Part shown: piece after piece, positions 390-20,553 of the stretch
Layout: every line of letters begins with the position of its first letter
Position numbering within the stretch: the first letter of the stretch is position 1
From: Candidatus Limnocylindria bacterium
Lineage (GTDB): Bacteria; Chloroflexota; Limnocylindria; QHBO01
Reading direction: 5' to 3'
Assembly: GCA_036258775.1 (NCBI GenBank)
Contig: DATADA010000183.1
Coordinates: 1 to 27,074 of the forward strand
Length of the DNA stretch: 27,074 nucleotides
The notes under the pieces: model-generated
Database searches by the model: none
What the model saw: only the letters and a program-made list of their open reading frames with translations
What the model was told of the DNA's origin: nothing
Program-made: the position numbers and the translations under genes

Positions 390-913
390 CGGCCGCTCAC
401 GCCGAGCGCGGCGAGCTGCTCGTCGACGACCTGCTGGCTGAGCGGGCCGAACCACTTGAAGCGGACGATCCCCGAGGCGTCGACGAAGTAGGTCTCCGGT
501 GGGCCGGTGACGCCGAGGTCGAGCGCGATCCCGCCGTCCGGATCGAGGAGCGTCGGCCAGCCCCCGTCCCCGTAGCGCGCCAGCCAGCGGCGCGCGGCAT
601 CGGCCTCGTCCTGGTACAGGAGCCCCACGACGCTCAGCTCGTCGCCGTGCTCCGCCTCGAGCCCGAGCAGCACGGGATGCTCGTCGACACACGGCCCGCA
701 CCAGCTGGCCCACACGTTGACGATCGCGGGCCGGCCGCGCAGGGCGTCGCTGGCGAGGCGTTCGCCATCCAGCGTCGCCGCCTCGAAGGGGGGCAGGGGC
801 CGTCCGATGAGCGGCGACGGCACCTCGCGCGCGTCCCGGCTGAACCCGGTCAGGAGCAGCCAGCCGACGGGGAGCACGAACACGGGCAGCACCAGCCACC
901 TGAGCCTGCTCAT
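386..913 (-). CDS. ccmG: Thiol:disulfide interchange protein CcmG/DsbE (TlpA-like thioredoxin)
   Basis: Real start is the ATG at 913 (MSRLRWLVLP), which overlaps the ccmF stop. N-terminal membrane anchor, then VNVWASWCGPC, GVTGPPETY. 175 aa. Confidence 0.93.
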   Translation of the reverse strand: MSRLRWLVLPVFVLPVGWLLLTGFSRDAREVPSPLIGRPLPPFEAATLDGERLASDALRGRPAIVNVWASWCGPCVDEHPVLLGLEAEHGDELSVVGLLYQDEADAARRWLARYGDGGWPTLLDPDGGIALDLGVTGPPETYFVDASGIVRFKWFGPLSQQVVDEQLAALGVSGR

Positions 914-2952
914 CGGGCGCTCTCGGCGGTCGCGGCCGCCACGGGGCCCTCGGCGTCGGAGACCGACAGCGAGGACGGGCGCCGCGCCCGCTCGCGCGCC
1001 GGCTGCGGACGGCGGTCGGGCCACGCGGCGAAGATCGCACCGGCGACGGCGACACCGCCGCCGGCCCAGATCCAGGCGACGAGCGGGTTGACGAACACCG
1101 CGAACGACGCCACACCCGTCGCCGGGTCGTGGCCGAGCAGCGTCACGTACAGGTCCTCGCCGAGTCCGGACCGGACGGCGGGCGTCAGGATCGGCGTGGC
1201 CGAGCTCGGATACTCCCGCACGGCGGCGACCAGCGAGCCCCGCTGCGGGCCGGTGTAGTCGAGGTGCGCCCGCGTCTCGGCCACCCGGGCGTCGTCCGCC
1301 AGCGGCCCGCGGTCGACGCCCCGATACGTGAGCGTGTAGTCGCCGATCCGGATCGTCTCGCCCGGCCGCACCGTCCGCTCGGTGCTGTGCGCCGCGGTCG
1401 AGCTGATCGCCACGGCGACCGCCATGACGAGCACGCCGAGATGAACGACGTAGCCGCCGTAGCGACGTCGACTTCGCGCGACGAGGCGCCATGCCGCCGT
1501 CGGCACGGCCTCTCCGCGGCCGCCTGCCCTGGCCCGGGCGCCACGCACCCACTCGTCGGCGATCACCGCCGCGACGAAGCCGGCGAGCGCGAGCGTCGCG
1601 ATCGCCGCTGGATCACGCGCGCCGAACAGGAGCGCCGCCGTGCCGACGACGGCGGCGACGGCCAGCGGGAGCGCGAAGCGCCGCCTGACCGTCTCCCACG
1701 ACGCCGCACCCCACGGCAGCGCGGGGCCGACGCCCATCACGAACAGGAGCGCCAGGGCGATCGGCACGGTGACGGCGTTGAACCATGGCGCGCCGACGCT
1801 GACCCGCACGCCGCTGATCGCCTCGGCGAGGAGCGGGTAGAGGGTCCCGAACAGGACGGCGAAGGTCAGCGCAACGAAGAGCACGTTGTTGAGCAGGAAC
1901 GCGCTCTCGCGGCTCACCGCCGCGGCCGGACGGTCGGCGACGGCGAGATCCGGCAGCCGCCAGATGATGAGCGCCACCGAGGCGGTGAGGGCGAGCAGCA
2001 CGCCCCCCAGGAACCACGGGCCGATGGCCGACTGCGTGAACGAGTGGACGCTGGCCACGACCCCCGAGCGGGTCAAGAACGTCCCCAGGATGGTGAACAC
2101 GAACGTCGCGCTCACCAGCGTGACGGTCCACGTCCGCAGCCCGCCGCGGCGCTCGGCGACCATCGATGAGTGCAGGAAGGCGGTCGCCGTCAGCCACGGC
2201 AGGAGCGCGGCGTTCTCGACCGGGTCCCACGCCCAGTACCCGCCCCAGCCGAGCACCTCGTAGCTCCACCAGGCACCGGCCACGATGCCGGCGGTCAGGA
2301 AGATCCACGCCGCCAGCGTCCATCGCCGGGTCGTCCGCAGCCACTCGGCGCCGAGCCGGCGGGTCACGAGCGCCGCCACGGCGAACCCGAACGGGATGGC
2401 GAGGCCGGTGTAGCCGAGGTACAGCAGCGGCGGGTGGAGCCCCATGAACGGGTGGTTCTGCAGCAGCGCGTTCGGGCCGGGGCCCTCGCTCGGGACCGGC
2501 GTGATGCGGACGAACGGGTCCCCGGGCCACACCATGACCGCCAGGAAGAAGACCAGGCCACCGGCCAGCGCCGCGCCGACCCACGGCATCAGCGCGACGT
2601 GGCGGTGCCGGTATCGGTACAGGACGAGCGCCGCCCAGCCGCTGGCCAGCAGGGTCCAGAACAGGATCGAGCCCTCGAGCGCCGCCCACAGGCTGATGAC
2701 GCTGAAGAACGGCGGCGTGGTGGTCGCGTTGTTGCGCGCGACGTACTCCACGCTGAAGTCGTGGCCGAGCAACGCCGCGACCATGGCCCCGCACGCGAGC
2801 AGGGCCGCGGCGAAGGTGAGGTAGATCGCGGTCCGTGCGCTGGCGAGCACGCCGGTGTCGCGGCGCAGGCCGGCCGCCACGAACGCGACGAGGGCGTAGA
2901 CGGTCAGCGCCAGCCCGACCACGACCGACGCGTGTCCGACGACCGCGGTCAC
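910..2952 (-). CDS. ccmF: Heme lyase CcmF/NrfE family subunit
   Basis: 680 aa polytopic membrane protein with NHPFMGLHPP, the WWD-type motif WSYEVLGWGGYWAWDPVENAA, and TRSGVVASVHSF. GTG start overlaps the ccmE stop. Confidence 0.97.
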   Translation of the reverse strand: MTAVVGHASVVVGLALTVYALVAFVAAGLRRDTGVLASARTAIYLTFAAALLACGAMVAALLGHDFSVEYVARNNATTTPPFFSVISLWAALEGSILFWTLLASGWAALVLYRYRHRHVALMPWVGAALAGGLVFFLAVMVWPGDPFVRITPVPSEGPGPNALLQNHPFMGLHPPLLYLGYTGLAIPFGFAVAALVTRRLGAEWLRTTRRWTLAAWIFLTAGIVAGAWWSYEVLGWGGYWAWDPVENAALLPWLTATAFLHSSMVAERRGGLRTWTVTLVSATFVFTILGTFLTRSGVVASVHSFTQSAIGPWFLGGVLLALTASVALIIWRLPDLAVADRPAAAVSRESAFLLNNVLFVALTFAVLFGTLYPLLAEAISGVRVSVGAPWFNAVTVPIALALLFVMGVGPALPWGAASWETVRRRFALPLAVAAVVGTAALLFGARDPAAIATLALAGFVAAVIADEWVRGARARAGGRGEAVPTAAWRLVARSRRRYGGYVVHLGVLVMAVAVAISSTAAHSTERTVRPGETIRIGDYTLTYRGVDRGPLADDARVAETRAHLDYTGPQRGSLVAAVREYPSSATPILTPAVRSGLGEDLYVTLLGHDPATGVASFAVFVNPLVAWIWAGGGVAVAGAIFAAWPDRRPQPARERARRPSSLSVSDAEGPVAAATAESAR

Positions 2953-3428
2953 GGGCGGCCCGGTTCCTCCGCCGGCACGAAGACGCTGCCGCCGGGCGTC
3001 TCGCCGGGCGCGGGCGCCTCATAGTTCTCGTCGTGCTTGACGATCACGCGCGTCGCCCGGAAGACCCCGTCGACACCCAGCGTGCCCTCCACCACGGCGC
3101 CGGTCCCCTCCCGGAACGAGCTGGTGGGGGCGCTGTCCGCCCGGACGGCGACGTGGGTCTGGCCATCGGTCAGGACGAAGCGCAGGTCGGTGGGTGGCCC
3201 GCTGACGCTGCCCGGCTCGACAAGCCCTCCCACCCGCACCGTCTCGCCGACCGCCCGCTCACCGCGGGCGACCAGCTCGCTGGGGGTGAGGTAGTAGACC
3301 AGCGCACTGCCGATGCTGCCGAACGCCAGGAGCACGATCGCGCCCAGCGCGACCGCCGCGCCCAGGACGATCCCCCACCGGCGGCGGCGGCGCGGCAGCG
3401 CCGGTGGCGCCGGGGCGCGGACGGTCAT
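2949..3428 (-). CDS. ccmE: Heme chaperone CcmE
   Basis: ATG at 3428 (MTVRAPAPP) overlaps the ccmD stop. One TM segment, YYLTPSE, VRVGGLV, FREGTGAVVEG and the heme-binding HxxxY motif KHDENY. 159 aa. Confidence 0.95.
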   Translation of the reverse strand: MTVRAPAPPALPRRRRRWGIVLGAAVALGAIVLLAFGSIGSALVYYLTPSELVARGERAVGETVRVGGLVEPGSVSGPPTDLRFVLTDGQTHVAVRADSAPTSSFREGTGAVVEGTLGVDGVFRATRVIVKHDENYEAPAPGETPGGSVFVPAEEPGRP

Positions 3429-3550
3429 CGCTCGTCGTCCCGGGCTCGCTCCCGCGCGCGGCGCAGGCGCCTGCCGAGAAGCAGGGCGTAGGCCGCCAGT
3501 CCACCCAGGATGACGCCGTAGGCCGCGATCACGAAGCCGGCGTCGCTCAT
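3425..3550 (-). CDS. ccmD: Heme exporter protein D (CcmD)
   Basis: 41 aa, MSDAGFVIAAYGVILGGLAAYALLLGRRLRRARERARDDER: one TM plus a charged tail. Sits between ccmC and ccmE with ATGA overlaps on both sides. Confidence 0.85.
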   Translation of the reverse strand: MSDAGFVIAAYGVILGGLAAYALLLGRRLRRARERARDDER

Positions 3551-4260
3551 CGGGCCAGCGCCTCCCCGCGGACGGCCGCGACGCGCTCGCGGCGCACCTC
3601 CTCCTCGCGCCGCTGCTCGAGCCGCGCAAGCTCGTAGCGCCGGACCATGAGGTACGCCCAGGCCAGCGTGAAGGCGACGAGCATGCCGACCAGGGCGGCG
3701 ACGAACTGCCCGGGTGCGGGCGGATCGAAGACGCGGTCGGGGGCGAGGAAGGTCGGCGGCTGGTGCAGGCCACGCCACCAGATGACGCTGAAGTGGACGA
3801 TCGGGATGTCGACGGCGGCGACCAGGCCGACCACCGCCGCGCGGGTGGCGCGGCGCAGCGGGTCGTCGGTCAGGCGTCGGACCAGCAGGTAGCCGACGTA
3901 GAGCGCCAGCAGCAGGGCCGTGGTCGTCAGGCGCGGGTCCTCCCACTGCCAGAAGACGCCCCACACCGGCCGGCCCCACATCATCCCGCCCCAGATGGCG
4001 AAGGCCGTGAACATGACGCCGATCTCGGCGCCGGCGTGCGCGGCCGCGTCGAAGCGAAGGTCGCGGCGCACGAGCCACAGCAGCCCGCCGACGGCCGTCA
4101 CCGCGAAGGACAGGTAGCCGAGCCACGCCGAGGCAACGTGCGGGTACATGATCCGCTGCGCGTCGCCCTGGTTGGCGTCCGGCGGCACCACGAAGAGGCC
4201 GAACCCGGTCGCCGCCGCGACGGCGGCCACCGCCGCCCAGCCGAGGATGCGCGTCGCCAT
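3547..4260 (-). CDS. ccmC: Heme exporter protein C (CcmC)
   Basis: ATG at 4260 (MATRILGW). QRIMYPHVASAW, tryptophan-rich WGRPVWGVFWQWEDPRLTT, VHFSVIWWRGLHQP. 237 aa. Confidence 0.96.
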   Translation of the reverse strand: MATRILGWAAVAAVAAATGFGLFVVPPDANQGDAQRIMYPHVASAWLGYLSFAVTAVGGLLWLVRRDLRFDAAAHAGAEIGVMFTAFAIWGGMMWGRPVWGVFWQWEDPRLTTTALLLALYVGYLLVRRLTDDPLRRATRAAVVGLVAAVDIPIVHFSVIWWRGLHQPPTFLAPDRVFDPPAPGQFVAALVGMLVAFTLAWAYLMVRRYELARLEQRREEEVRRERVAAVRGEALAR

Positions 4261-4267
4261 CGGCCGC

Positions 4268-4957
4268 TCAGTCCTCCAGGACGAAGCCGTAGGCGGCCGC
4301 ACCGGCGACCAGCATGACGACGTCGAAGGCCGCGAGCAGCTGCAGCCACGCGACGAGCTCGCCGAACGGGTCGCCGGTCAGCGCGGCGGCGGTTGCCTTC
4401 ACCGCCGCGAGCAGGAGCGGCGCCGTGACCGGCAGCAGGAGCAGCGGCAGCAGCACCTCGCGGGCCCGCATGCGGACGGTGAGGCCGGCATAGAAGGTGC
4501 CGGCCGCGCCGAAGCCGACCGCGCCGAGCACCACGGTGACCGCCAGCGGCAGCCATCCGGCGGCCGGATCGAGCCCGTACAGGACCGCGACCGCAACGGT
4601 CAGGAGCGCGCCGAGCAGCAGCATCGCCGCCGCCGCCGCCAGCGCCTTGCCGGCGTACAGCGCGCGGCGCGAGACCGGATAGAGGGCGAGCTGCTCGAGC
4701 GAGCCGTCCTCCGCCTCGAGCTCGTGGAGCCGCGCGACCGCCAGCAGACCGGCGAAGACGAGCGCCAACCACAGCAGCCCGGGCGCCGCCTCGGCCAGGC
4801 GCCGCGCATCGGGCCCCAGGGCGAAGCCGAACAGGAGCAGGACGAGAGCCGCGAAGAAGACGGTGGAGACCGCGGCGTGCCGGCCTCGCAGCTCGGCGAG
4901 CGCGTCCTTACGGGCGACGGCCAGCGCCACGCCCAGCTCCCGGCGCACCGAGCTCAA
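4268..4957 (-). CDS. ccmB: Heme exporter protein B (CcmB)
   Basis: 229 aa hydrophobic protein: ARKDALAELR, APGLLWLAL, REVLLPLLLLPVTAPLLLAAV. TTG start overlaps the ccmA stop (TTGA). Confidence 0.93.
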   Translation of the reverse strand: MSSVRRELGVALAVARKDALAELRGRHAAVSTVFFAALVLLLFGFALGPDARRLAEAAPGLLWLALVFAGLLAVARLHELEAEDGSLEQLALYPVSRRALYAGKALAAAAAMLLLGALLTVAVAVLYGLDPAAGWLPLAVTVVLGAVGFGAAGTFYAGLTVRMRAREVLLPLLLLPVTAPLLLAAVKATAAALTGDPFGELVAWLQLLAAFDVVMLVAGAAAYGFVLED

Positions 4958-5757
4958 CGCGAGGCGCCCGCGGTGAGCACCCCGTCACCCACGGCGTGCG
5001 GCTGGTCGGCGGGCCGCGCCGCCGGCGCCCCGTCGAGAAGGCGGACGGCGCCGCCCCGGGCCTCGACGGCCACGCCGCCCTCCAGCCGGAGCGTGCCGTC
5101 GGCCTGTGCTGCGATCCGGTCGGCGGCGTGCGAGGCGACGATGACCGCGACGCCCGCGTCCCGCCAGGCGACGAGGAGCCGGTCGACGAAGCCCATCGCG
5201 TCCGCGTCGAGGGCAGCGTACGGCTCGTCGAGCAGCACCAAACTCGGAGAGCCGAGCAGCAGTCGCGCCAGCCCCAGCCGACGCCGCATGCCGGCCGAGT
5301 AGCCTCGGACCCGGCGGTCCGCCACTCCCTCGAGGTCCACCGCTGCCAGCGCGGCCGCCACCCTCTCCCTCGACTCGACGCCGCCGAGGCCGAGCAGGGT
5401 CGCGGAGAAGACGAGGTTCTCGCGCGCGGTCAGGTCGCCGTAGAGCGCGGTGGCGTGCGACAGGTAGGCGACCCGTTCGCGCACCTCGATCGGGTTGACG
5501 GCCGGATCGAGGCCGTCGATCCGCACGCTCCCCCAGCTCGGGCGGATGGCCGTGGCCAGGATCCGCAGCAGCGTGGTCTTGCCGGCTCCGTTCGGCCCGA
5601 GCAGGCCGACCACCCTCCCGGCGTCCATGCCGAACGAAACGCCGGCGAGGGCCGGCGTCTCCCCGAAGAGGCGGGCGACGTCGCGGGTCACGACGGCGGC
5701 CGGCGGCGAGTCGAAGAGCCCGCGGGAGCGCGGGGAAACGTAGATCGTCTGCGGCAT
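4954..5757 (-). CDS. ccmA: Heme ABC exporter ATP-binding protein CcmA
   Basis: Start taken at ATG 5757 (MPQTIYV), downstream of a clear promoter. Walker A GPNGAGKTT, signature YSAGMRRR, Walker B LLDEP. First gene of the ccm operon. Confidence 0.92.
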   Translation of the reverse strand: MPQTIYVSPRSRGLFDSPPAAVVTRDVARLFGETPALAGVSFGMDAGRVVGLLGPNGAGKTTLLRILATAIRPSWGSVRIDGLDPAVNPIEVRERVAYLSHATALYGDLTARENLVFSATLLGLGGVESRERVAAALAAVDLEGVADRRVRGYSAGMRRRLGLARLLLGSPSLVLLDEPYAALDADAMGFVDRLLVAWRDAGVAVIVASHAADRIAAQADGTLRLEGGVAVEARGGAVRLLDGAPAARPADQPHAVGDGVLTAGASR

Positions 5758-12413: not shown

Positions 12414-13181
12414 TTGACGCTGAGAGACGCAGCGGCGCCCGTCGGCGCCCCAGCCCCTGAAGTCGAGACCTCGGAGGCGGAACGGATCCGGCGCGAGTTC
12501 GCCCGGGCCTGGGGCGAGATCGGGGCGGCATGGGGAGTCGCGCCGTCGACCGCGGCGGTCCAGGGATACTTCCTGGCCCACGGCGGCCCCCTGACCGAGC
12601 CGGAGATCCGCCGGGCGCTCGGCATGAGCCATCGCGCCGCCAGCGCCGCGCTCGCCCAGTGCGAGGAGTGGGGGCTGATCGAGCGGGCGCCGGACGCCCG
12701 CCGCAGCGGTCAGCGCGGCCCGGCGGCGGCGGCGTACCGCGCGGTCGGCGACCACTGGACGTGGTTCCGACACGTCACCCGGGCTCGCAAGGAGCGCGAG
12801 ACCGACCCCGTGCTGCCGGTCCTCGACCGATGCGTCAGCGCGGCCTCCGCCGCGGCGCAGGCCGGAGACGCCGGCGCCGAGGTGGCGGAGCTGGCCTCGC
12901 GGCTCGGGGCGCTTCGCGAGTTCGTGCGGCTCTTCGACCACGGCGTCGACGCGTTCATCACGGCACGCCCGCAGGCCACGGCGTCACTCTTCGCCGTGGT
13001 GGGGCGGCTCGACGAAGGGACGCTGAACCGCCTCTTCGCCCTCCTCGACCGCGTTCCGCCCGACGACGCGGCCGAGGCGCTCCGCACGCTGAGCCGGCTC
13101 TCGCCCGACGCGGCCCAACGGCTGGTGCGGCTCGCCGGCCAGCCCATGCTGGCGCGGCTGTTGGGCGGAACCGGGGGCTGA
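12414..13181 (+). CDS. GbsR/MarR-family transcriptional regulator with C-terminal helical extension
   Basis: Probable TTG start at 12414 after AAGGGA. EFARAWGEIGAAWGV...VQGYFLAHGGPLTEPEIRRALGMS...EEWGLIER...WTWF matches the GbsR-type wHTH pattern. Start codon uncertain. Confidence 0.8.
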   Translation: MTLRDAAAPVGAPAPEVETSEAERIRREFARAWGEIGAAWGVAPSTAAVQGYFLAHGGPLTEPEIRRALGMSHRAASAALAQCEEWGLIERAPDARRSGQRGPAAAAYRAVGDHWTWFRHVTRARKERETDPVLPVLDRCVSAASAAAQAGDAGAEVAELASRLGALREFVRLFDHGVDAFITARPQATASLFAVVGRLDEGTLNRLFALLDRVPPDDAAEALRTLSRLSPDAAQRLVRLAGQPMLARLLGGTGG

Positions 13182-13205: not shown

Positions 13206-13249
13206 CCGCCGGCGCGACTCGCCGGCGGTGCTAGTCGCCGGCGGTGCTA
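13206..13249. repeat. GC hairpin and 15-bp tandem duplication between convergent genes
   Basis: Stem CCGCCGGCG/CGCCGGCGG at 13206-13214 and 13220-13228. TCGCCGGCGGTGCTA at 13219-13233 and 13235-13249. Confidence 0.6.
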
Positions 13250-14689
13250 CTCACCGGTCTCGTCGTCCTCGAAGAAGGAGGCTCCGGCCGCGACGGCCCG
13301 GCGCTCCCCACCTCCCAGCACCGCCGGGAGCGGGCGTGGCAGCGGCACCGGGGTGAGGTGGCGCGAAACGAGCTCGCGGGTGCCGGCGATGCCGAGGGCG
13401 TCGAACAGCACGCCGAACTTTGCCCGCAGCGCGTCGGCGATGCCTTCCTGCCGGTCCCCGGACAGCTCCCACAGTTGACGCTTGAACGGGCCGAGCGCCT
13501 TCTTGCGCGTCTTGTAGAGGAACTGCTCGTCGGTCTCCCCCTCCTTGCGCTCGTCGGCGGCACTCGTTCGGCTCCACTCCATCATCTCGCCGCGCAAATC
13601 GCCGGGGAGCGCGTCGTAGAGGATGTTCATGAACCCGGTCGCCAGGTGGATCTCCGCGCAGCCGTTGGCCGGGAAGTGGTGGAACGCCTCCTCGGGCAGC
13701 GTCGAGGCGCCGTGCTGGACGCATCCCGCCAAGCCGTACTCGTCGCGCGCCACGGCCGACAGCCGGCGCAGCGTGTCGAAGTCGATCGAGACCTCGGCGA
13801 TCGTGCCGTCCGGCAGCGGGACGCCGCCGTGGCTCGTGCCGGTCTGGATGCTGACCTTGCTGAGCCCGGTAAGATCCCCGATCCGCGCCCGGTACTGGTC
13901 GAGGTAGCCGCGCAGCTCCTCCTCGGTGGAGTTGTGCTTGCCCACCTCTCCGATCTCGCCGCCGATGCTGATCGTCACGCCCGCGGGCTGGAGCTCGCGG
14001 ATGAGCCGCGTGATCTCGGCGCTGTTCTCGGCATTGACGCGCTGCTGCTCCGGGACGGTGGGACGCGACAGGTCGACGAGGGTCGACGAGTCGATGTCGA
14101 TGTTCAGGAAGCCGGCCGCGACCGCCTCGCGAGTCAGGTCCTTGATGCCGTTCATCTCGGCCTCCGGGTCGACCGGCCACTTCTTGGGATTGAACTGGAA
14201 GTGGTCGCCCTGCAGGAAGACCGGCCCGCGCCAGCCCTCGCGCAGGGCCGCCCCGAGGATCACGGCGGCGTACTCGTCGGCGCGCTGGTCGGTGTAGGCC
14301 ATCTCGCTCTTGGCGATCTCGAACACCACCGTGCCGGCGTCGCGCTCGAGCGCCGCGCGGAACGCCTGTCGCGCGGTCAGGTACGCCGACGCTCGCACGT
14401 TGATCGCCGGCACCGTGAAGCGCGTCGGCTCGAACTCGCCGCGACCCCGGGCCAGGTACAGGTCGTGGATCGACGCCGACGGGCAGCCCAGTGCCTGCGA
14501 GGCCGACCAGATCGCCCAGCGGCATGCGTCGCGCATCGGCGCCTCGGCGTGGAAGACGGCGTCCCACACCAGGTCGTCGAGCAGCTGATCGCGGAAGCCG
14601 ATCTCGTCGTCGACCTCGAGGCTGTCCCCGCCGAGCCGCCCGACCCGCGACAGGCGCGAACGGAAGTCGTCGGCGGACGCGAACGTCAT
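13247..14689 (-). CDS. fba: Class II fructose-bisphosphate aldolase family protein (long form)
   Basis: 480 aa. VPAINVR, QGDHFQ, GGEIGEVG, QTGTSHGG and VQHGAS provide the Asp/His metal ligands of class II aldolases. Substrate not certain. Confidence 0.8.
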   Translation of the reverse strand: MTFASADDFRSRLSRVGRLGGDSLEVDDEIGFRDQLLDDLVWDAVFHAEAPMRDACRWAIWSASQALGCPSASIHDLYLARGRGEFEPTRFTVPAINVRASAYLTARQAFRAALERDAGTVVFEIAKSEMAYTDQRADEYAAVILGAALREGWRGPVFLQGDHFQFNPKKWPVDPEAEMNGIKDLTREAVAAGFLNIDIDSSTLVDLSRPTVPEQQRVNAENSAEITRLIRELQPAGVTISIGGEIGEVGKHNSTEEELRGYLDQYRARIGDLTGLSKVSIQTGTSHGGVPLPDGTIAEVSIDFDTLRRLSAVARDEYGLAGCVQHGASTLPEEAFHHFPANGCAEIHLATGFMNILYDALPGDLRGEMMEWSRTSAADERKEGETDEQFLYKTRKKALGPFKRQLWELSGDRQEGIADALRAKFGVLFDALGIAGTRELVSRHLTPVPLPRPLPAVLGGGERRAVAAGASFFEDDETGE

Positions 14690-14722: not shown

Positions 14723-14728
14723 ATCCTA
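14723..14728 (-). promoter_or_regulatory. Possible internal -10 (TAGGAT) for the aldolase gene
   Basis: TAGGAT overlaps the TAG stop of the upstream gene and ends 33 nt before ATG 14689. Confidence 0.35.
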
Positions 14729-15082
14729 GCGGAGGGCCGACACGAGGGTGAAAGCGAGCAGCGGCGCGACCACGATCCCGGCCGTCGCGGCCAGGAGGTA
14801 CCAGTCGCGCGCGGCGCCGCCGTCCGCCATGCGGCGCCGCCTCAGCCCGGCGGTCCACCACACCACGCCCGACAGGCCGGCGACGTAGAGGCCGGCCGCC
14901 AGGCCGGCGGTCGCCATGAGCAGGCCACGCGGCGGACCGCAGCCCGCCCACGCCAGCGGGCCGCCGGGTGGGCAGGCGGCGACGGCCTCGGCGACGATCA
15001 GCGAGCCGGCCGAGAGCAGGACGAGCGCGGACCAGGCGAGGTGCGCGGCGCGCAGGCGGTCCAGCGAGCGGGAGAGCGTCAG
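14726..15082 (-). CDS. Hypothetical membrane protein (about 3 TM), last gene of the Rieske/cyt b operon; probable CTG start
   Basis: The ORF track gives only 14726-14917. The frame stays open and hydrophobic (AHLAWSALVLLSAGSLIVAEAVAAC) back to CTG at 15082, which overlaps the upstream TGA. There is an in-frame stop at about 15124-15126. 118 aa. Confidence 0.6.
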   Translation of the reverse strand: MTLSRSLDRLRAAHLAWSALVLLSAGSLIVAEAVAACPPGGPLAWAGCGPPRGLLMATAGLAAGLYVAGLSGVVWWTAGLRRRRMADGGAARDWYLLAATAGIVVAPLLAFTLVSALR

Positions 15083-15663
15083 CCCGCGGCGTAGGCGGCG
15101 CCGCGCTCCCGCGCCGCCTCTGCCTCACGCCTGGTGATGCGCCGGTACTCGAAATAGAGGTACACGAGCGAGGCCGCGCCCAGGCCGGCGACCAGCGTCC
15201 CGAACGCCAGGGCCGCGAGCGGGAAGCGCAGCGGCCAGAGCGACCCACCGGCGAGGTTGAACGCCATGAGCGGGATGAGCAGCAGCATCACGAACAGGTA
15301 CTGGAGGAAGTTGAGCACGCGCACCAGCTCCCAGCCGAAGCCGCGGCGGCCGCGCGCCGCCTGCGTCCAGAGCGCCAGGATGATCAGCACGAAGAAGTTG
15401 CCGCCGCCGACCATGGCGGCGATGACGAAGCCGACGTCCTCGCTGAAGCGCAGGAAGGGGATCTCGACGGTCACCAGGTAGTACACGTAGTTCGGGACGT
15501 AGGCGACCAGGAAGTAGAGGTACAGGAAGAGCGGGACGCCCTTGAGGAGCGCCACCAGCCAGGTCTCGCGCCCGTAGAGCAGCCAGCTCGTGAAGTCGTC
15601 GACGAAGGCGAGGGCTCCGCGCAGGCCACGCCCGCGCCGGCGACCGGCGTAGGGGGTCGTCAT
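15079..15663 (-). CDS. Hypothetical aromatic-rich polytopic membrane protein (about 4 TM) in the Rieske/cyt b operon
   Basis: 194 aa. Starts 7 nt after the cytochrome c stop. Several TM-length hydrophobic segments; no His or Cys. Confidence 0.85.
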   Translation of the reverse strand: MTTPYAGRRRGRGLRGALAFVDDFTSWLLYGRETWLVALLKGVPLFLYLYFLVAYVPNYVYYLVTVEIPFLRFSEDVGFVIAAMVGGGNFFVLIILALWTQAARGRRGFGWELVRVLNFLQYLFVMLLLIPLMAFNLAGGSLWPLRFPLAALAFGTLVAGLGAASLVYLYFEYRRITRREAEAARERGAAYAAG

Positions 15664-15670
15664 CGGTGCA

Positions 15671-16492
15671 TCAGCCTCCGTGCTCGCCCTCGAGCAGGAA
15701 GGTGATCAGCGCCTCGAGCTGGCTCTCGCTGAGGACGTCCTCGGGGTAGGACGGCATGCCGGTCGACTCGCCGCCGTTGTAGTTCCCCGACGAGTCGCGG
15801 ATCCAGTTCTCCAGGAAGAGGCGCGGGTCCTCCTCGTAGTCGGCCTCCATCTGGTCGAGCTCCGACGGCGGCACCGGCAGCTCGGTGATCAGCTCCTCGC
15901 CGATGCCCTGGATGTTCGGGAACTGGGGTGGGGCTCCCGCCAGGTCGGCGCCGTGGCAGCTGGCGCACGATGGCGAGACGGAGGTGTACACCTGCGCCCC
16001 GGCCTCGACGGTGTTCGGCACCTCCTGCGGCTCCTCCTCCTCCGCCTCCTCCGCCCAGCTCTCGACCAGCACCGTCAGCGCCTCGATCTGCTGCTCGTTC
16101 AGCGGCCCACCGACCTCGTAGCTCCAGGCCGGCATGGCGCTGTTGACGTTGCCCGACACGACCACGCCGCCGAAGCGGATGACGAGGTTCACGTAGTTCG
16201 GGTTCGCCTGCAGCTTGTCGGCGATCCGGGCCGAGTGGAGGTTCGGGGCCTGCACGGTGCCCTGCGCGGTCTCGGCCTCGCCGCCGGTTCCGTCGGCGCC
16301 GTGGCAGCGGGCGCAGCCCGCGGCGGCCGGGTTCGACGGATCGTCGGCGAAGATCTCCTCGCCGAACTCGAGGAGCTGCTCCTCCTGGGTCTCGGCGCGG
16401 GCGGTTCGCCGCGCGTCGTCGGTGATCCAGTAGAAGACGGTGAACACGCTGAGCGCCAGGGTCACCAGTACGCCGAGCGTCTTGAGCCGCAT
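15671..16492 (-). CDS. Membrane-anchored diheme c-type cytochrome
   Basis: N-terminal TM. Two CxxCH motifs (CARCH, CASCH), each followed by a candidate distal Met (SAMPAW, TGMPSY). 273 aa. Confidence 0.93.
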   Translation of the reverse strand: MRLKTLGVLVTLALSVFTVFYWITDDARRTARAETQEEQLLEFGEEIFADDPSNPAAAGCARCHGADGTGGEAETAQGTVQAPNLHSARIADKLQANPNYVNLVIRFGGVVVSGNVNSAMPAWSYEVGGPLNEQQIEALTVLVESWAEEAEEEEPQEVPNTVEAGAQVYTSVSPSCASCHGADLAGAPPQFPNIQGIGEELITELPVPPSELDQMEADYEEDPRLFLENWIRDSSGNYNGGESTGMPSYPEDVLSESQLEALITFLLEGEHGG

Positions 16493-16495
16493 CGG

Positions 16496-17113
16496 TCAGG
16501 CGGAGCAGTGCGGCATGTCGCCCGGGCCACGGGAGTCGAACGTCACCGTGCCGGGTGGAGGACCGCTGATGACCTCGCGGGTGTCGACGATGTAGGTGCC
16601 GTTCTCGACTGCCGTCGCGAAGCTGTCCATCCCGCGCGGTGCGGGTCCGTCGCGCTTCTCGCCGAGGACGGTGTACTTGCTGCCGTGGCAGAGGCACTCG
16701 AACCAGTTCGACTGGTCGCACAGCTGCGGGATCTGGCAGCCGAGGTGCGGGCAGGTCCGCCACAGCGCCAGGATCTGGTCGCCGGGGTCCTGGACCGCCT
16801 CGCCGGTTCCCTCGACGCGGGCCATGGCGGCCGGCACGTTGACGACGAACAGGTTGGCGGCCTGGTAGATGTACGGCAGCCCGTTCTGCCACTCGGGTGC
16901 GGCGGAGTTGATGTCGGCGGAGGTGCCGATGCTGATCCGCGCGCCGAGCCCCTCTCGCAGGTTCGGCCACAGGAAGGCGACCGTCCCGCCCAGGAACTCG
17001 AGCGACAGGATCCCCACGCCGACGCCGAGCATCCGGCGCATGAAGCCGCGGCGGCTGATCTCGCCTCGTGGCGGGCCGTGGACGACCCCGTAGCCGGCGC
17101 CCTGCGTGGTCAC
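16496..17113 (-). CDS. Rieske iron-sulfur subunit of a quinol:cytochrome c oxidoreductase (QcrA/PetC-like)
   Basis: Real start GTG 17113 overlaps the upstream stop. Tat motif SRRGFM plus TM; boxes CPHLGC and CLCHGSKY; GPAPRGMD. 205 aa. Confidence 0.95.
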   Translation of the reverse strand: MTTQGAGYGVVHGPPRGEISRRGFMRRMLGVGVGILSLEFLGGTVAFLWPNLREGLGARISIGTSADINSAAPEWQNGLPYIYQAANLFVVNVPAAMARVEGTGEAVQDPGDQILALWRTCPHLGCQIPQLCDQSNWFECLCHGSKYTVLGEKRDGPAPRGMDSFATAVENGTYIVDTREVISGPPPGTVTFDSRGPGDMPHCSA

Positions 17114-17727
17114 AGCGTGAAGAACAGGCCGTCCCACGGCCAGACCCAGTTCCAGCCGGGGCCGCGGAAGAACGAGCCGATGAGGGTCACCAGCAGGCCG
17201 CCGATCATGATGCACAGGAAGAAGACCCACATCATCTTGCGGTCGCGGGCGGCGCGATACGGCGAGCGGTCGATGTACGGGATGATGGCCAGGCCGACGA
17301 GGTAGAGGGTCGGGACCAGGACGCCCGCCACGGTCGGGTTGAAGTAGCTCAGGATCTCCTGCAGGCCGAGGAAGTACCACGGCGCCTTGGCCACGTGCGG
17401 CGTCACCGCGCGGTTGGCCATCTCCTCGAGCGGCGCCTGGATGAGCAGCGACGTGATCGTCAGCAAGGCGAGGATGAGCATCATCATCAGGAACTCGGCC
17501 CGCAGCAGATGCGGCCAGGTCAGGAGGGTCTCGTCCGGGCGCTTGTCGACGCGGACCATCGACTCCTGCTTGACGTAGGCGAGCAGGCGGAAGCGCTCGG
17601 TGCCCGGCACGCCCGGCGGGCCGGGCAGCTTCGGGCCGGTGCCGCGCTCGACCATCGGCACGCGCGGCGGCGCCTGCGTCGGAGCGTTCTTGTCGGCGGT
17701 GGCGTTCGGCCGGCGCTCGATCGTCAT
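17110..17727 (-). CDS. Cytochrome b subunit IV-like protein (C-terminal half of split cytochrome b; PetD/QcrC-N-like)
   Basis: TWPHLL, APLEEMAN...PHVAKAPWYFLGLQE, IPYIDR; three TM helices. 205 aa. Confidence 0.92.
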   Translation of the reverse strand: MTIERRPNATADKNAPTQAPPRVPMVERGTGPKLPGPPGVPGTERFRLLAYVKQESMVRVDKRPDETLLTWPHLLRAEFLMMMLILALLTITSLLIQAPLEEMANRAVTPHVAKAPWYFLGLQEILSYFNPTVAGVLVPTLYLVGLAIIPYIDRSPYRAARDRKMMWVFFLCIMIGGLLVTLIGSFFRGPGWNWVWPWDGLFFTL

Positions 17728-17749
17728 CGGTCTCTACAGGGTAGCGCGT

Positions 17750-18484
17750 CTAGACCGGCCCGCTGATTCCGCCGTCCTTCCTGATCCGCCAGAAGTGGAT
17801 GATCATGAAGAGGGCGGCGATCAGCGGGAAGGCGATGACGTGCATGACGTAGAAGCGCAGCAGCGTCCCCTGGTCGACCTGCACACCGCCGAGCAGGATG
17901 AAGCTCGACTCGGCTGACAGGAGCGGCGCATAGGTCGCCATCTGGGTGCCGACGGTGATCGCCCAGAAGGCGATCTGGTCCCACGGCAGCAGGTAGCCGG
18001 TGAAGCTGAGCCACAGGGTGCAGAAGAGCAGCACCACGCCGACGACCCAGTTGAACTCCCGCGGCGGCTTGTACGCCCCGTGGTAGAAGACGCGGATCAT
18101 GTGCAGGAAGACGGTCAGCACCATGAGGTGCGCCGCCCAGCGGTGCATGTTCCGCACGAACGCGCCGAAGGCGACGCTCGACTCGATGGCCTGGATGTCC
18201 TGGTAGGCGCGGCTGATCGACGGCACGTAGAAGAACATCAGGTAGATGCCGGTGACGGTCAGCGCCAGGAACAGGAAGAAGCTGATCCCGCCCAGGCAGA
18301 AGGTGTAGGTGTAGCGCACGGCGTGGCGCTTCACGCGCACCGGGTGCAGGTGCAGCCAGACATTGTTCATGACCGCCAGCGCGCGGGTGCGGCTGGTGTT
18401 CGGGTAGGGCTGGCGGATGAGGCTGCGCCAGGCCGACGACTCCTTGATGAAGCGAACGACCGGGTTCGGCTGCCCGTTGCTCAT
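17750..18484 (-). CDS. Cytochrome b6-like subunit (N-terminal half of split cytochrome b; PetB/QcrB-like)
   Basis: 244 aa. FCLGGISF, RNMHRWAAHLMV...LHMIRVF, KPPREFNW, FTGYLLPWDQ, TLLRFYVMHV...IHFWRIRKDGGISGP. The four heme b histidines are present. Confidence 0.96.
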   Translation of the reverse strand: MSNGQPNPVVRFIKESSAWRSLIRQPYPNTSRTRALAVMNNVWLHLHPVRVKRHAVRYTYTFCLGGISFFLFLALTVTGIYLMFFYVPSISRAYQDIQAIESSVAFGAFVRNMHRWAAHLMVLTVFLHMIRVFYHGAYKPPREFNWVVGVVLLFCTLWLSFTGYLLPWDQIAFWAITVGTQMATYAPLLSAESSFILLGGVQVDQGTLLRFYVMHVIAFPLIAALFMIIHFWRIRKDGGISGPV

Positions 18485-20454
18485 CGGTCGACCACCGCCC
18501 CGGCCTGCTGCCCGATCTGCCCGAGCACGTTGTCCTTGTAGCTCTCCAAGAGCACCTTCCCGTCAGGCGTGAACCGCTCGAGCTCGAGGCGGTCCATCGT
18601 GATGCAGTTCGTCGGACAGCGCTCCACGCACAGGTTGCAGCGGATGCAGCGCTCCTCGTCGATGATCATCGCGATCCCGCGCGGCCACGACTGGAACAGC
18701 TCGACCTCGGGATCGTCGCCGCCGACCTGCGCCTTGTCGACCATGTAGATCACGCCCTCGGGGCAGACGTCGGCGCAGAGCCCGCACAGGATACAGCGGG
18801 GCCCATCGATGTTGATGTTGTGGTTGCACTGCAGGCAGCGCTGGCCCTCGGCGATGGCGCTGCGCGTGTCGTAGCCGACCTCGACCAGGCTGGTGAAGTC
18901 ACGGCGCAGCTCCGGCGGCGCCATCGGGATGTGCTGGCGCTCGATGGCCTCGTAGAAGCGCGGCATGTCGTGCTCGAGGGCCTGGGTCACGACCGCGCGG
19001 TTGATGACCGGCAGCTCCTCGAGCTCGTCGCCGCGGTAACCCGCCAGCCAGCGGTCGACCGCCCGCGCGCAACGCCGGCCGAGTCCGGCCGCCTCGATGA
19101 TCGTCGCCGGGCCCGTGACGAAGTCGCCGACCGCGAAGACCCCGTCGACGTTGGTGGCGAACGTGTCCGCGTTGACGGTGATCTTGCCGCGGTTGAAGTC
19201 GAAGCGGAACGAGTTGTAGCGCGCCCCATCGCCGCGCGACGGCGTGGAGCCGTTGAGCGGCGCGGTGCGCCACGACGAGACCGACCCACCCTCGAGCACG
19301 GCGCGGGTGTCGGTGACGCCGACGTGCCGGTTCAGCTTCGCGCCGTACTCGCCCAGCACGTTGTTGTCGGGTGACTGGCTCGTGCAGGGGATGACCATGT
19401 CGCACGGGATCGTGAACTCGCTGCCGGGGATCGGCTCGGCGCTGCGACGGCCTGACGCGTCCGGCGGGCCCAGACGGGTCCGCACGAAGCGCATGGCGGT
19501 GACCCGGCCGTTCTCGTCGGCGATCACCTCCTCCGGCGAGGCGAAGTACTCGAAGCGGACCCCCTCGAAGCGGGTCTCGTGCTGCTCCTCCTCGTCGACC
19601 ACCATCTCGTCGGGACCGCGGCGGTAGACGACCGTGCTCGTCTTGGCGCCGAGCCGCAGGGCCGTGCGCGACGAGTCCATGGCGGTGTAGCCGCCGCCGA
19701 CGATGACGACGTGCTCGCCGACCCACTGCGGCTCGCCGAGGTTGGCGCGCTTCAGGAAGTCGACGCCGTAGATCACGCCGTCGAGCTCCTCGCCCGGCAC
19801 GTTCATGGCGACCGGGTACATGCAGCCGGTGGCGACGACCACGGCGTCGTGCCGCTCGCGCAGCTGGTCGATGGTGACGTCGCGCCCGATCTCGGTGTTG
19901 TAGTGGAACTCGACCCCGTGCTTGGCGACCCAGTTGACGTCGAGCTCGATCACGTCACGCGGCAGCCGGAAGGCGGGGACGCCGATGAGCGTCGTCCCAC
20001 CGCCCGACGGCAGCGCCTCGTAGACGTGCACCTCGTGGCCGTAACCGGCGAGGTCCTTCGCGGCGGAGAGCCCCGCCGGGCCCGCGCCGATGACGGCCAC
20101 GCTGCGCCCGGTCGGCGGGTTGACCACGATGTGGTCCGGCATGTTGTTGGCGTAGTGCCAGTCGACCAGGAAGCGCTTCATGGCGCGGATGGCGAGCGGC
20201 TTGTCGATGTCCGCGCGGCGGCAGGCCTTTTCGCAGGGCGCGCTGCAGACGTACCCGCAGATCGCCGCCACCGGGTTCGGGTCGCGGGCGAGGATGTAGC
20301 CCTCCTCGAACCGCCCCTCGCCGGCCAGCATCAGGTAGCCGCGGCAGTTGGTGTTGACCGGGCAGCCCTCCTGGCACTCGATGTTGCACTGGAGCCAGTC
20401 GACACCGACCTCGGCCGTCTGGAACCGGAGGGGGATGGCGTTCTCGGAGCTCAC
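18481..20454 (-). CDS. FAD-dependent NAD(P)H oxidoreductase with Fe-S clusters (GltD/SudA/NfnB superfamily) and a C-terminal 2x[4Fe-4S] ferredoxin domain
   Basis: 657 aa. N-terminal CNIECQEGCP and CGYVCSAPCEKAC; FAD fold VIGAGPAG; NAD(P) fold IVGGGYTAMD...VYRR; GDFVTGP; RCLQC; then CILCGLCADVCP and CIRCNLCVERCP. Its stop overlaps the cyt b ATG (ATGA). Confidence 0.92.
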   Translation of the reverse strand: MSSENAIPLRFQTAEVGVDWLQCNIECQEGCPVNTNCRGYLMLAGEGRFEEGYILARDPNPVAAICGYVCSAPCEKACRRADIDKPLAIRAMKRFLVDWHYANNMPDHIVVNPPTGRSVAVIGAGPAGLSAAKDLAGYGHEVHVYEALPSGGGTTLIGVPAFRLPRDVIELDVNWVAKHGVEFHYNTEIGRDVTIDQLRERHDAVVVATGCMYPVAMNVPGEELDGVIYGVDFLKRANLGEPQWVGEHVVIVGGGYTAMDSSRTALRLGAKTSTVVYRRGPDEMVVDEEEQHETRFEGVRFEYFASPEEVIADENGRVTAMRFVRTRLGPPDASGRRSAEPIPGSEFTIPCDMVIPCTSQSPDNNVLGEYGAKLNRHVGVTDTRAVLEGGSVSSWRTAPLNGSTPSRGDGARYNSFRFDFNRGKITVNADTFATNVDGVFAVGDFVTGPATIIEAAGLGRRCARAVDRWLAGYRGDELEELPVINRAVVTQALEHDMPRFYEAIERQHIPMAPPELRRDFTSLVEVGYDTRSAIAEGQRCLQCNHNINIDGPRCILCGLCADVCPEGVIYMVDKAQVGGDDPEVELFQSWPRGIAMIIDEERCIRCNLCVERCPTNCITMDRLELERFTPDGKVLLESYKDNVLGQIGQQAGAVVDR

Positions 20455-20523
20455 TCTCGGTCCGTGTCGCTCTGTGCGGGTTCCGTGCGTCGCCGGGGTG
20501 ACGGCATGGGGAGCGGCCAGCCG

Positions 20524-20553
20524 ATGCTACCGTTCGCCGCTCGGGGGTGTCAA
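20524..20553 (-). promoter_or_regulatory. Sigma70-type promoter of the oxidoreductase-Rieske/cyt b operon
   Basis: Minus strand reads TTGACA-N18-TAGCAT, ending about 69 nt upstream of GTG 20454. Confidence 0.7.

Follow-up and report, generated by a model that had tools for sequence, protein, structure and literature searches.

A class-wide operon joins an NADPH/FAD flavoprotein gene to a b6c-type Rieske/cytochrome b complex in Limnocylindria

The stretch of DNA analysed here (the window, 27,074 nt, ~73% G+C) belongs to a metagenome-assembled genome (MAG) of Limnocylindria, soil Chloroflexota, that is 55% complete and 1.56 Mb in size. Its minus strand carries a seven-gene operon, a single, tightly packed, promoter-led unit, which specifies a b6c-type Rieske/cytochrome b complex. 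The complex combines cytochrome b6 (haems bP, bN and cN) with subunit IV, a Rieske protein and a dihaem cytochrome c anchored in the membrane. The first gene encodes a flavoprotein that, by its sequence, is a genuine NfnB/GltD-type NADPH/FAD/iron-sulfur (FeS) module, translationally coupled to cytochrome b6. On sequence grounds, an intact b6c core and an intact NADPH/FAD/4×FeS module are genetically coupled here as tightly as possible. Gene content shows or strongly implies that aerobic Limnocylindria use this complex as their main quinol:cytochrome c oxidoreductase, and its cytochrome b is the only one in about four of every ten sampled genomes. Our tentative preference is for a normal Q-cycle complex into which NADPH electrons would enter on the N side through the flavoprotein.

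Textbooks assign Rieske/cytochrome b complexes a single function. With an NADPH flavoprotein permanently attached, such an enzyme would gain a second substrate and possibly also a second way of coupling energy, a design that has so far been proposed and modelled only for the hard-to-grow bacteria of anaerobic ammonium oxidation (anammox). The operon described here is standard throughout a class of aerobic Chloroflexota that are common in soil and has a dihaem cytochrome c and no exotic multihaem partners, so the question of whether NADPH electrons go in or come out becomes testable in a far simpler respiratory background.

Organization of the operon

The promoter and genes of the operon, in order of transcription, are as follows.

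20524–20553, minus strand: sigma-70-type promoter, TTGACA (20553–20548), 18-nt spacer, TAGCAT (20529–20524)
18481–20454, minus strand: NfnB/GltD-like NADPH/FAD flavoprotein, 657 amino acids, GTG start, no transmembrane (TM) helix (Pfam)
17750–18484, minus strand: cytochrome b6, 244 amino acids, 4 TM helices (Pfam Cytochrome_B, 1.7e-43)
17110–17727, minus strand: subunit IV, 205 amino acids, 3 TM helices (Pfam Cytochrom_B_C, 1.6e-10; TM scan)
16496–17107, minus strand: Rieske [2Fe-2S] protein with a twin-arginine anchor (Pfam Rieske); start uncertain, ACG 17107 or ATG 17041
15671–16492, minus strand: membrane-anchored dihaem cytochrome c, 273 amino acids (Pfam Cytochrom_C, two stretches)
15079–15663, minus strand: membrane protein without an assigned family, 194 amino acids, 4 TM helices (TM scan)
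14726–15082, minus strand: membrane protein without an assigned family, ~118 amino acids, 3 TM helices (conserved frame, TM scan)

An earlier note on this DNA had placed a TTGACA-N18-TAGCAT promoter ahead of the seven genes, and the site is present and conserved in relatives. It is the sole promoter-like site in the 8 kb between positions 13000 and 21000 (1 found against 0.3 expected). For comparison, 80 species-level relatives' loci were collected, the nearest proteins and loci being those of Candidatus Limnocylindria, Chloroflexota. The −10 element, TA[GC]CAT, occurred in all 77 of the relatives' upstream regions, and a −35 element, TTG[AC][CG]N, stood at a spacing of 16–19 nt in 60 of the 77.

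The flavoprotein stop codon and the cytochrome b start codon overlap by 4 nt (ATGA), and the Rieske gene lies downstream of both cytochrome b and subunit IV; on both points the same note had read the sequence correctly. Cytochrome b and subunit IV are separated by 22 nt, the Rieske and cytochrome c genes by 3 nt, and cytochrome c and the gene for the 194-residue protein by 7 nt. The further claim that no gap exceeds 22 nt holds with non-canonical starts for the Rieske gene (ACG) and the last gene (CTG) and fails with canonical ones. At the Rieske start, the relatives read ATG-ACN-CAG right after the subunit IV stop codon. This ATG was found in 58 of 60 relatives and is absent from the window, where ACG occupies position 17107 and the next ATG is at 17041. 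The ACG may be either a near-cognate start codon or a consensus error of the MAG. A start at ATG 17041 would drop the first of two twin-arginine pairs.

For the last gene, the open reading frame finder returned a 63-residue protein starting at ATG 14917, 161 nt past the preceding stop. The same frame is open from CTG 15082, which overlaps the upstream TGA (CTGA), and residues ~2–118 are conserved in the relatives' proteins. The upstream part comprises a TM helix and a CPPGG...C loop whose conservation at the protein level extends across the class. Given this conserved upstream frame, the last protein has ~118 residues and 3 TM helices and not 63 residues, even with no ATG, GTG or TTG at the upstream start of the frame (15082 region).

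An NADPH/FAD flavoprotein with four iron-sulfur clusters

The flavoprotein contains the Pfam domains Fer4_20, Pyr_redox_2 and Fer4_7 and ends in a 2×[4Fe-4S] domain. Its matches among solved structures are NfnA (5e-100), NfnB (1.5e-86) and GltD (3e-65). Residue-level alignment to 4ylf_B, 5jca_L and 9n5u_A showed intact GxGxxG (FAD), GGGxxAxD (NADPH) and YRR motifs, the last being common to all of the solved NfnA, NfnB, NfnI-L and GltD relatives that were aligned, and the cysteines are arranged as expected for two clusters of the GltD type and two [4Fe-4S] clusters of the ferredoxin type. While Fer4_20, the FAD and NADPH sites and YRR are shared with the NfnB/GltD small-subunit family, the flavoprotein in the window differs from that family in its extra C-terminal 2×[4Fe-4S] ferredoxin domain, in an RCLxC segment after the FAD domain, as in Bfu-type NfnA, and in having a membrane cytochrome as its operon partner instead of NfnA or GltB. 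No NfnA or GltB partner gene was found in the operon, and the flavoprotein gene is flanked by cytochrome b6 and an ABC-2 permease. Annotation pipelines name the flavoprotein "glutamate synthase small subunit". An insertion of ~45 residues lies between the FAD-domain segments (residues ~371–418; 19200–19345, minus strand) and is missing from the aligned homologues of Limnocylindrales, Kuenenia, P0123 and P0124.

The membrane core

Cytochrome b6 carries the haem histidines H114, H128, H215 and H230 with the b6-type spacing of 14 and 15 residues, together with the haem-cN motif CLGG (C63). The motif and the four histidines are invariant in comparison with Kuenenia, Brocadia and Scalindua, and the aligned anammox cytochromes b are 55–57% identical to that of the window. 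As cytochrome b6 retains both the haem-cN cysteine and the C-terminal RKDGGISGP motif, a working Qi site fits the sequence. In subunit IV, the Qo motif KAPWYF replaces PEWY, as in Kuenenia, and a Pro/Ala-rich N-terminal extension of ~65 residues precedes it.

Compared with the canonical b6f/b6c complexes of cyanobacteria, Bacillus and Heliobacterium, the split into b6 and subunit IV, the histidine spacing, the haem-cN cysteine and the C-terminal RKxGISGP are shared. The canonical operons, however, have no dedicated FeS flavoprotein gene; they encode PEWY where the window has APWY, and their cytochrome b has an N-terminus ~37 residues shorter.

The Rieske protein has the cluster-binding boxes CPHLGC and CLCHGSKY, and its best solved matches are 9rk4 (Kuste4569) and 9rk3 (Kustd1480). 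Box II (CHGSKY), with its Ser/Tyr pair, matches Kuste4569 exactly, and the potential of the Kuste4569 Rieske protein was measured at +303 mV (PMC12954380). The cytochrome c contains the haem motifs CARCH and CASCH and an N-terminal TM helix. The two small membrane proteins had no Pfam, NCBIfam or Atlas identity, the Atlas matches of the 194-residue protein being hypothetical Chloroflexota clusters only. This protein is confined to the family-level clade of Limnocylindria to which the window belongs: it is syntenic in 57 of 80 loci, the remainder being mostly truncated, and was not found at the Limnocylindrales locus L083 or at anammox or Acidobacteriota loci.

By score, cytochrome b6 falls just above the cut-off of the NCBIfam ExtP equivalog NF040969 (293.7 bits; cut-off, 290), and subunit IV falls below that of ExtQ NF040970 (60; cut-off, 150). 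The Geobacter ExtOPQ (Cbc6) complex, encoded by extHIJKLMNOPQS, likewise joins a short b6-like cytochrome and a Rieske protein to a small membrane partner (PMC5877670); the Geobacter cluster differs in lacking a flavoprotein and in encoding a porin, a rhodanese and cytochromes with 4 to 12 haems. No ext-type neighbour (the porin ExtI, the rhodanese ExtH or the multihaem ExtKLMNS) was found in the window, and the name ExtP would therefore be a mis-annotation. Pipelines may in this way give a respiratory cytochrome b6 the misleading name of a b-type cytochrome of a selenite/tellurite reduction operon.

Conservation across Limnocylindria

Gene order was identical across the 80 relatives' loci, and all six downstream genes were present in 47 of the 50 with enough flanking sequence. 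Median identities to the window were 88% for the flavoprotein, 85% for cytochrome b6, 83% for subunit IV, 67% for the Rieske protein, 60% for cytochrome c, 62% for the 194-residue protein and 70% for the last protein, making the flavoprotein the most conserved protein of the operon (88%, against 60–67% for Rieske and cytochrome c).

The earlier note had proposed surveying genomes for such a flavoprotein gene beside cytochrome b. In an even set of 60 Limnocylindria genomes, each at least 85% complete, 55 encoded the flavoprotein, and at least 52 of these 55 had the b6 gene within ~2 kb downstream on the same strand. Six class genomes without the flavoprotein, from two genera, lacked a b6-type cytochrome b as well. 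The operon's cytochrome b was the sole cytochrome b in 22 of the 55 flavoprotein-carrying genomes, which corrects the 4 of 5 obtained from a first sample of five genomes. Many class members have 2–4 cytochrome b genes, and multiple Rieske/cytochrome b complexes per genome are common. In the MAG of the window itself, a second, actinobacterial-type QcrC-QcrA-QcrB set lies at the end of another contig (G000:C82, L002:1-1782).

RNA-labelled libraries (two metatranscriptomic and two other) yielded contigs 85–99% identical to the window that cover the flavoprotein, cytochrome b6 and subunit IV, and two of these contigs span the flavoprotein/cytochrome b junction. At eight loci (L003, L018, L025, L055, L059, L061, L071 and L077), operon proteins 85–90% identical to those of the window occur in bins labelled as other phyla (Steroidobacteraceae, Gaiellales, Binatia, Zixiibacteriota, Actinomycetota and Methylomirabilota); most likely, these contigs are mis-binned Limnocylindria.

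Relationship to the anammox complexes

Eighty Brocadiales loci were fetched with a peptide from the Rieske alignment. The flavoprotein is 32–41% identical to its anammox counterparts (32–39% in full-length alignments; E-values down to 1e-121), cytochrome b 49–58%, subunit IV 36–46% and the Rieske cluster domain ~40%. The four proteins are thus homologous one by one, as expected from the proposal in the earlier note of a complex related to, and yet distinct from, those of anammox bacteria. The core shared with Kuste4569-4574 and Kustd1480-1485 consists of a four-helix b6 with CxGG, a subunit IV with APWY, a Rieske protein and the flavoprotein. Also shared are the order flavoprotein-cytochrome b-subunit IV, with the flavoprotein gene directly upstream of cytochrome b, and the four FeS motifs. 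In anammox bacteria, subunits that include the flavoprotein homologue co-migrate in complexome data (cited in PMC12954380).

There are also differences. The Rieske gene lies downstream of subunit IV in the window, whereas in anammox bacteria it lies upstream of the flavoprotein. A dihaem cytochrome c takes the place of the hexa/octahaem cytochromes and HAO-like protein of the anammox complexes, and nothing resembling it was found at the Kuenenia locus L088. Subunit IV has 3 TM helices here and 5 in anammox bacteria, two extra lineage-specific membrane proteins are encoded, and the host is an aerobe with an A-type oxidase and complex I.

His45 of cytochrome b6 aligns with Kuste4571 His43, the AlphaFold3-predicted ligand of an extra interfacial haem b for which Kuste4570 Arg511 is a predicted contact (PMC12954380). 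The N-terminal motifs WLHLHP and WRSxFRHGY, considered as a docking signature of flavoprotein-linked cytochromes b, were rejected, as they occur in linked and unlinked genes alike. A further histidine, His54 (~18323–18325), precedes the CxGG cysteine by nine residues and was conserved in almost all of the linked cytochrome b genes examined (Tyr in L132), and most unlinked Brocadiales paralogues have Ser, Gly or Asn at this position (exceptions: L108, L150 and L167); it tracks flavoprotein linkage only loosely.

Phylogeny and wider distribution

Well-supported branches split the Limnocylindria clade from the Kuenenia clade in a flavoprotein tree of 95 sequences, and in the cytochrome b tree, where flavoprotein linkage changes only four times, Limnocylindria again formed its own clade. 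Both trees were built without an outgroup, and no direction of evolution is claimed. These deep, separate clades rule out a recent transfer from anammox bacteria and mark the Limnocylindria complex as a lineage of its own that branches deeply within a partnership both old and widely distributed.

Gene neighbourhoods were sampled for ten flavoprotein representatives from different clades of the 95-sequence tree. Linkage to cytochrome b or Rieske genes was found in Limnocylindrales (L083) and at P0127, P0129, P0131, P0132, P0141 and P0150, and linkage also occurred at five Acidobacteriota loci and in unnamed metagenome lineages. The family is not always linked in this way: homologues from P0123, Ktedonobacteria, Kiritimatiellota and many Pseudomonadota had no cytochrome b within 6 kb. 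For the Nitrospinota flavoprotein P0124, no cytochrome b was present downstream, the upstream side lying outside the covered sequence.

Linkage of cytochrome b to an oxidoreductase outside anammox bacteria is reportedly already evident in the comparative genomics of Dibrova in 2013. The earlier note had stressed the occurrence in a non-anammox bacterium. Such an occurrence is not new: according to Dibrova et al., short cytochromes b of subfamily G are encoded beside FeS oxidoreductases that bind NAD(P) not just in Planctomycetes but "in many other cases" (Dibrova 2017; PMC5600118), and the arrangement is class-wide in Limnocylindria and is also found in Acidobacteriota. The window matches that description in its short CxGG cytochrome b beside a large Cys-rich NAD(P)-binding protein, which would place the locus in subfamily G; the text of Dibrova et al. 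names Ktedonobacteria, Nitrospinae and others but not Limnocylindria (PMC5600118). Within the set of papers searched, none described such an operon for Limnocylindria. The operon is a new, well-documented instance of a flavoprotein linkage already known outside anammox bacteria.

Proposed function and alternatives

Five near-complete relatives (G001-G005) encode A-type COX1, NuoD and PntB, which places the complex in an aerobic chain with complex I and transhydrogenase; no ActD was found in them. Among quinone markers in these five genomes, none of MenB, MqnA/D, MenA or UbiA scored above the cut-off: MenB matches were crotonase paralogues only, MqnA/D were absent, and MenA/UbiA matches were UbiA-family genes near COX1. 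For this reason, no menaquinone was assumed in considering energetics.

In the scheme that we tentatively prefer, the membrane core would run an ordinary Q cycle to cytochrome c and the A-type oxidase, and the soluble flavoprotein would dock on the N side of the complex and exchange electrons with haems bN/cN. Docking on this side is suggested by the anammox homology and the class-wide gene coupling. The main role of the flavoprotein would be to admit NADPH electrons on the N side and pass them by way of FAD and its FeS clusters to haem cN and the Qi-site quinone. The complex would thereby double as an NADPH:quinone/cytochrome c reductase, much as in the scheme for cyclic electron flow in which ferredoxin/FNR is proposed to feed b6f. 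FNR bound to b6f (reference cited in PMC5600118) provides a precedent for N-side input from NADPH or ferredoxin. The entry reaction may be reversible. A normal Q cycle with NADPH entry is favoured because there is often no second complex III in the genome and because the motifs on the Qi side are retained. Stoichiometric co-assembly, which the earlier note read from the overlap of the flavoprotein and cytochrome b genes, and any NADP(H)-linked activity are inferences from sequence.

Several points weigh against this scheme. The direction of electron flow (NADPH in, or NADP+ reduced) is not readable from sequence, and outside anammox bacteria the association of the flavoprotein with the complex is predicted from gene coupling. 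As these bacteria have complex I and PntAB, it is not obvious why they should need a non-pumping entry for NADPH. Outside the class, the closest relatives of the flavoprotein (P0123 and Ktedonobacteria) are not beside cytochrome b, and Kuste4570 Arg511 is not conserved in the window flavoprotein, where it aligns with Leu559. The RNA-library contigs come from relatives and not from this strain, and may include DNA. Lastly, CLCHGSKY is shared with Kuste4569, whose potential of +303 mV was read by the anammox authors as favouring NAD(P)+ reduction (PMC12954380).

The anammox-like, high-potential signature of the Rieske protein makes the opposite direction a serious rival, although a less probable one. 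Here, the complex would be a bifurcating quinol:cytochrome c/NADP+ oxidoreductase, in which one Qo electron travels uphill via bP, bN/cN and FeS to FAD and NADPH, and the drop of the other to the Rieske protein, cytochrome c and O2 pays for NADP+ reduction. Such a bifurcating quinol/NADP+ scheme was reportedly proposed for anammox bacteria by Kartal et al. in 2013. The subunit-by-subunit homology to Kuste4569-4573 and Kustd1480-1485 and the APWY Qo motif common to anammox subunit IV speak for it, as does the identical box II, since +303 mV has been argued to imply very low-potential b haems (PMC12954380). Conservation of His45 counts on the same side, but the His45 motif is also present in cytochrome b genes without a nearby flavoprotein. 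The argument from a high-potential Rieske protein on a low-potential quinone is unusable, with all quinone markers below the cut-off. Moreover, many of these aerobes have no other complex III, and obligatory NADP+ reduction would make their respiration depend on an equal consumption of NADPH; heterotrophs that possess PntAB can obtain NADPH in other ways; and the electron must also travel against the membrane potential. A bolder and rather unlikely reading is that, in an abundant class of aerobic soil bacteria, the main and often sole complex III reversibly couples the quinone pool, cytochrome c/O2 and cytoplasmic NADP(H), and that Qo bifurcation in particular could drive NADP+ reduction. If so, respiration would generate NADPH outside anammox metabolism, with oxygen ultimately pulling the reaction.

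A third explanation holds that the flavoprotein is co-transcribed without being a stable subunit, and that it acts as a soluble FeS oxidoreductase dependent on NADPH, for instance in connection with ferredoxin or redox homeostasis, with only its expression coordinated with the complex. Its lack of a TM helix would fit, as would the same architecture without a nearby cytochrome b in Ktedonobacteria, many Pseudomonadota and P0123, and no linkage-specific docking motif was found on cytochrome b. We nonetheless consider this improbable. The anammox homologue co-migrates with its complex (PMC12954380), the window genes show the ATGA coupling, and the flavoprotein gene keeps its fixed place directly upstream of cytochrome b/Rieske genes across three or more phyla and in several of the deep clades of the flavoprotein. 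Across the class, flavoprotein and b6 are jointly present and jointly absent, and the flavoprotein is better conserved than the other members of the operon.

Least probable of all is that the b haems exchange electrons through this module with something other than NADP(H), the module serving either as a ferredoxin-type entry or exit or as a valve draining over-reduced b haems to limit superoxide: b6-type complexes are sources of reactive oxygen species, the C-terminal dicluster ferredoxin domain is of a surface type and NfnB relatives among the PDB matches exchange electrons with ferredoxin, but neither dinucleotide site has been lost, nor has the YRR found in NADPH-binding relatives, and purifying selection acts on the whole flavoprotein, not on its FeS part alone.

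Neighbouring genes

Directly downstream of the operon lies one further gene on the same strand.

13247–14689, minus strand: class II aldolase-like gene, 480 amino acids (PF01116, 1.3e-13)

It begins 36 nt past the last stop codon of the operon, with no terminator-like site found between the two, and adjoins the operon in 49 of 80 relatives' loci. Possibly, it is co-transcribed with the operon; whether it is part of the system is uncertain. Elsewhere, the window encodes an ABC-2 exporter, Ku and a PBP. The System I cytochrome c maturation genes CcmF, CcmC-like and CcmB (910–4984, minus strand) lie ~10 kb downstream of the operon on the same strand.

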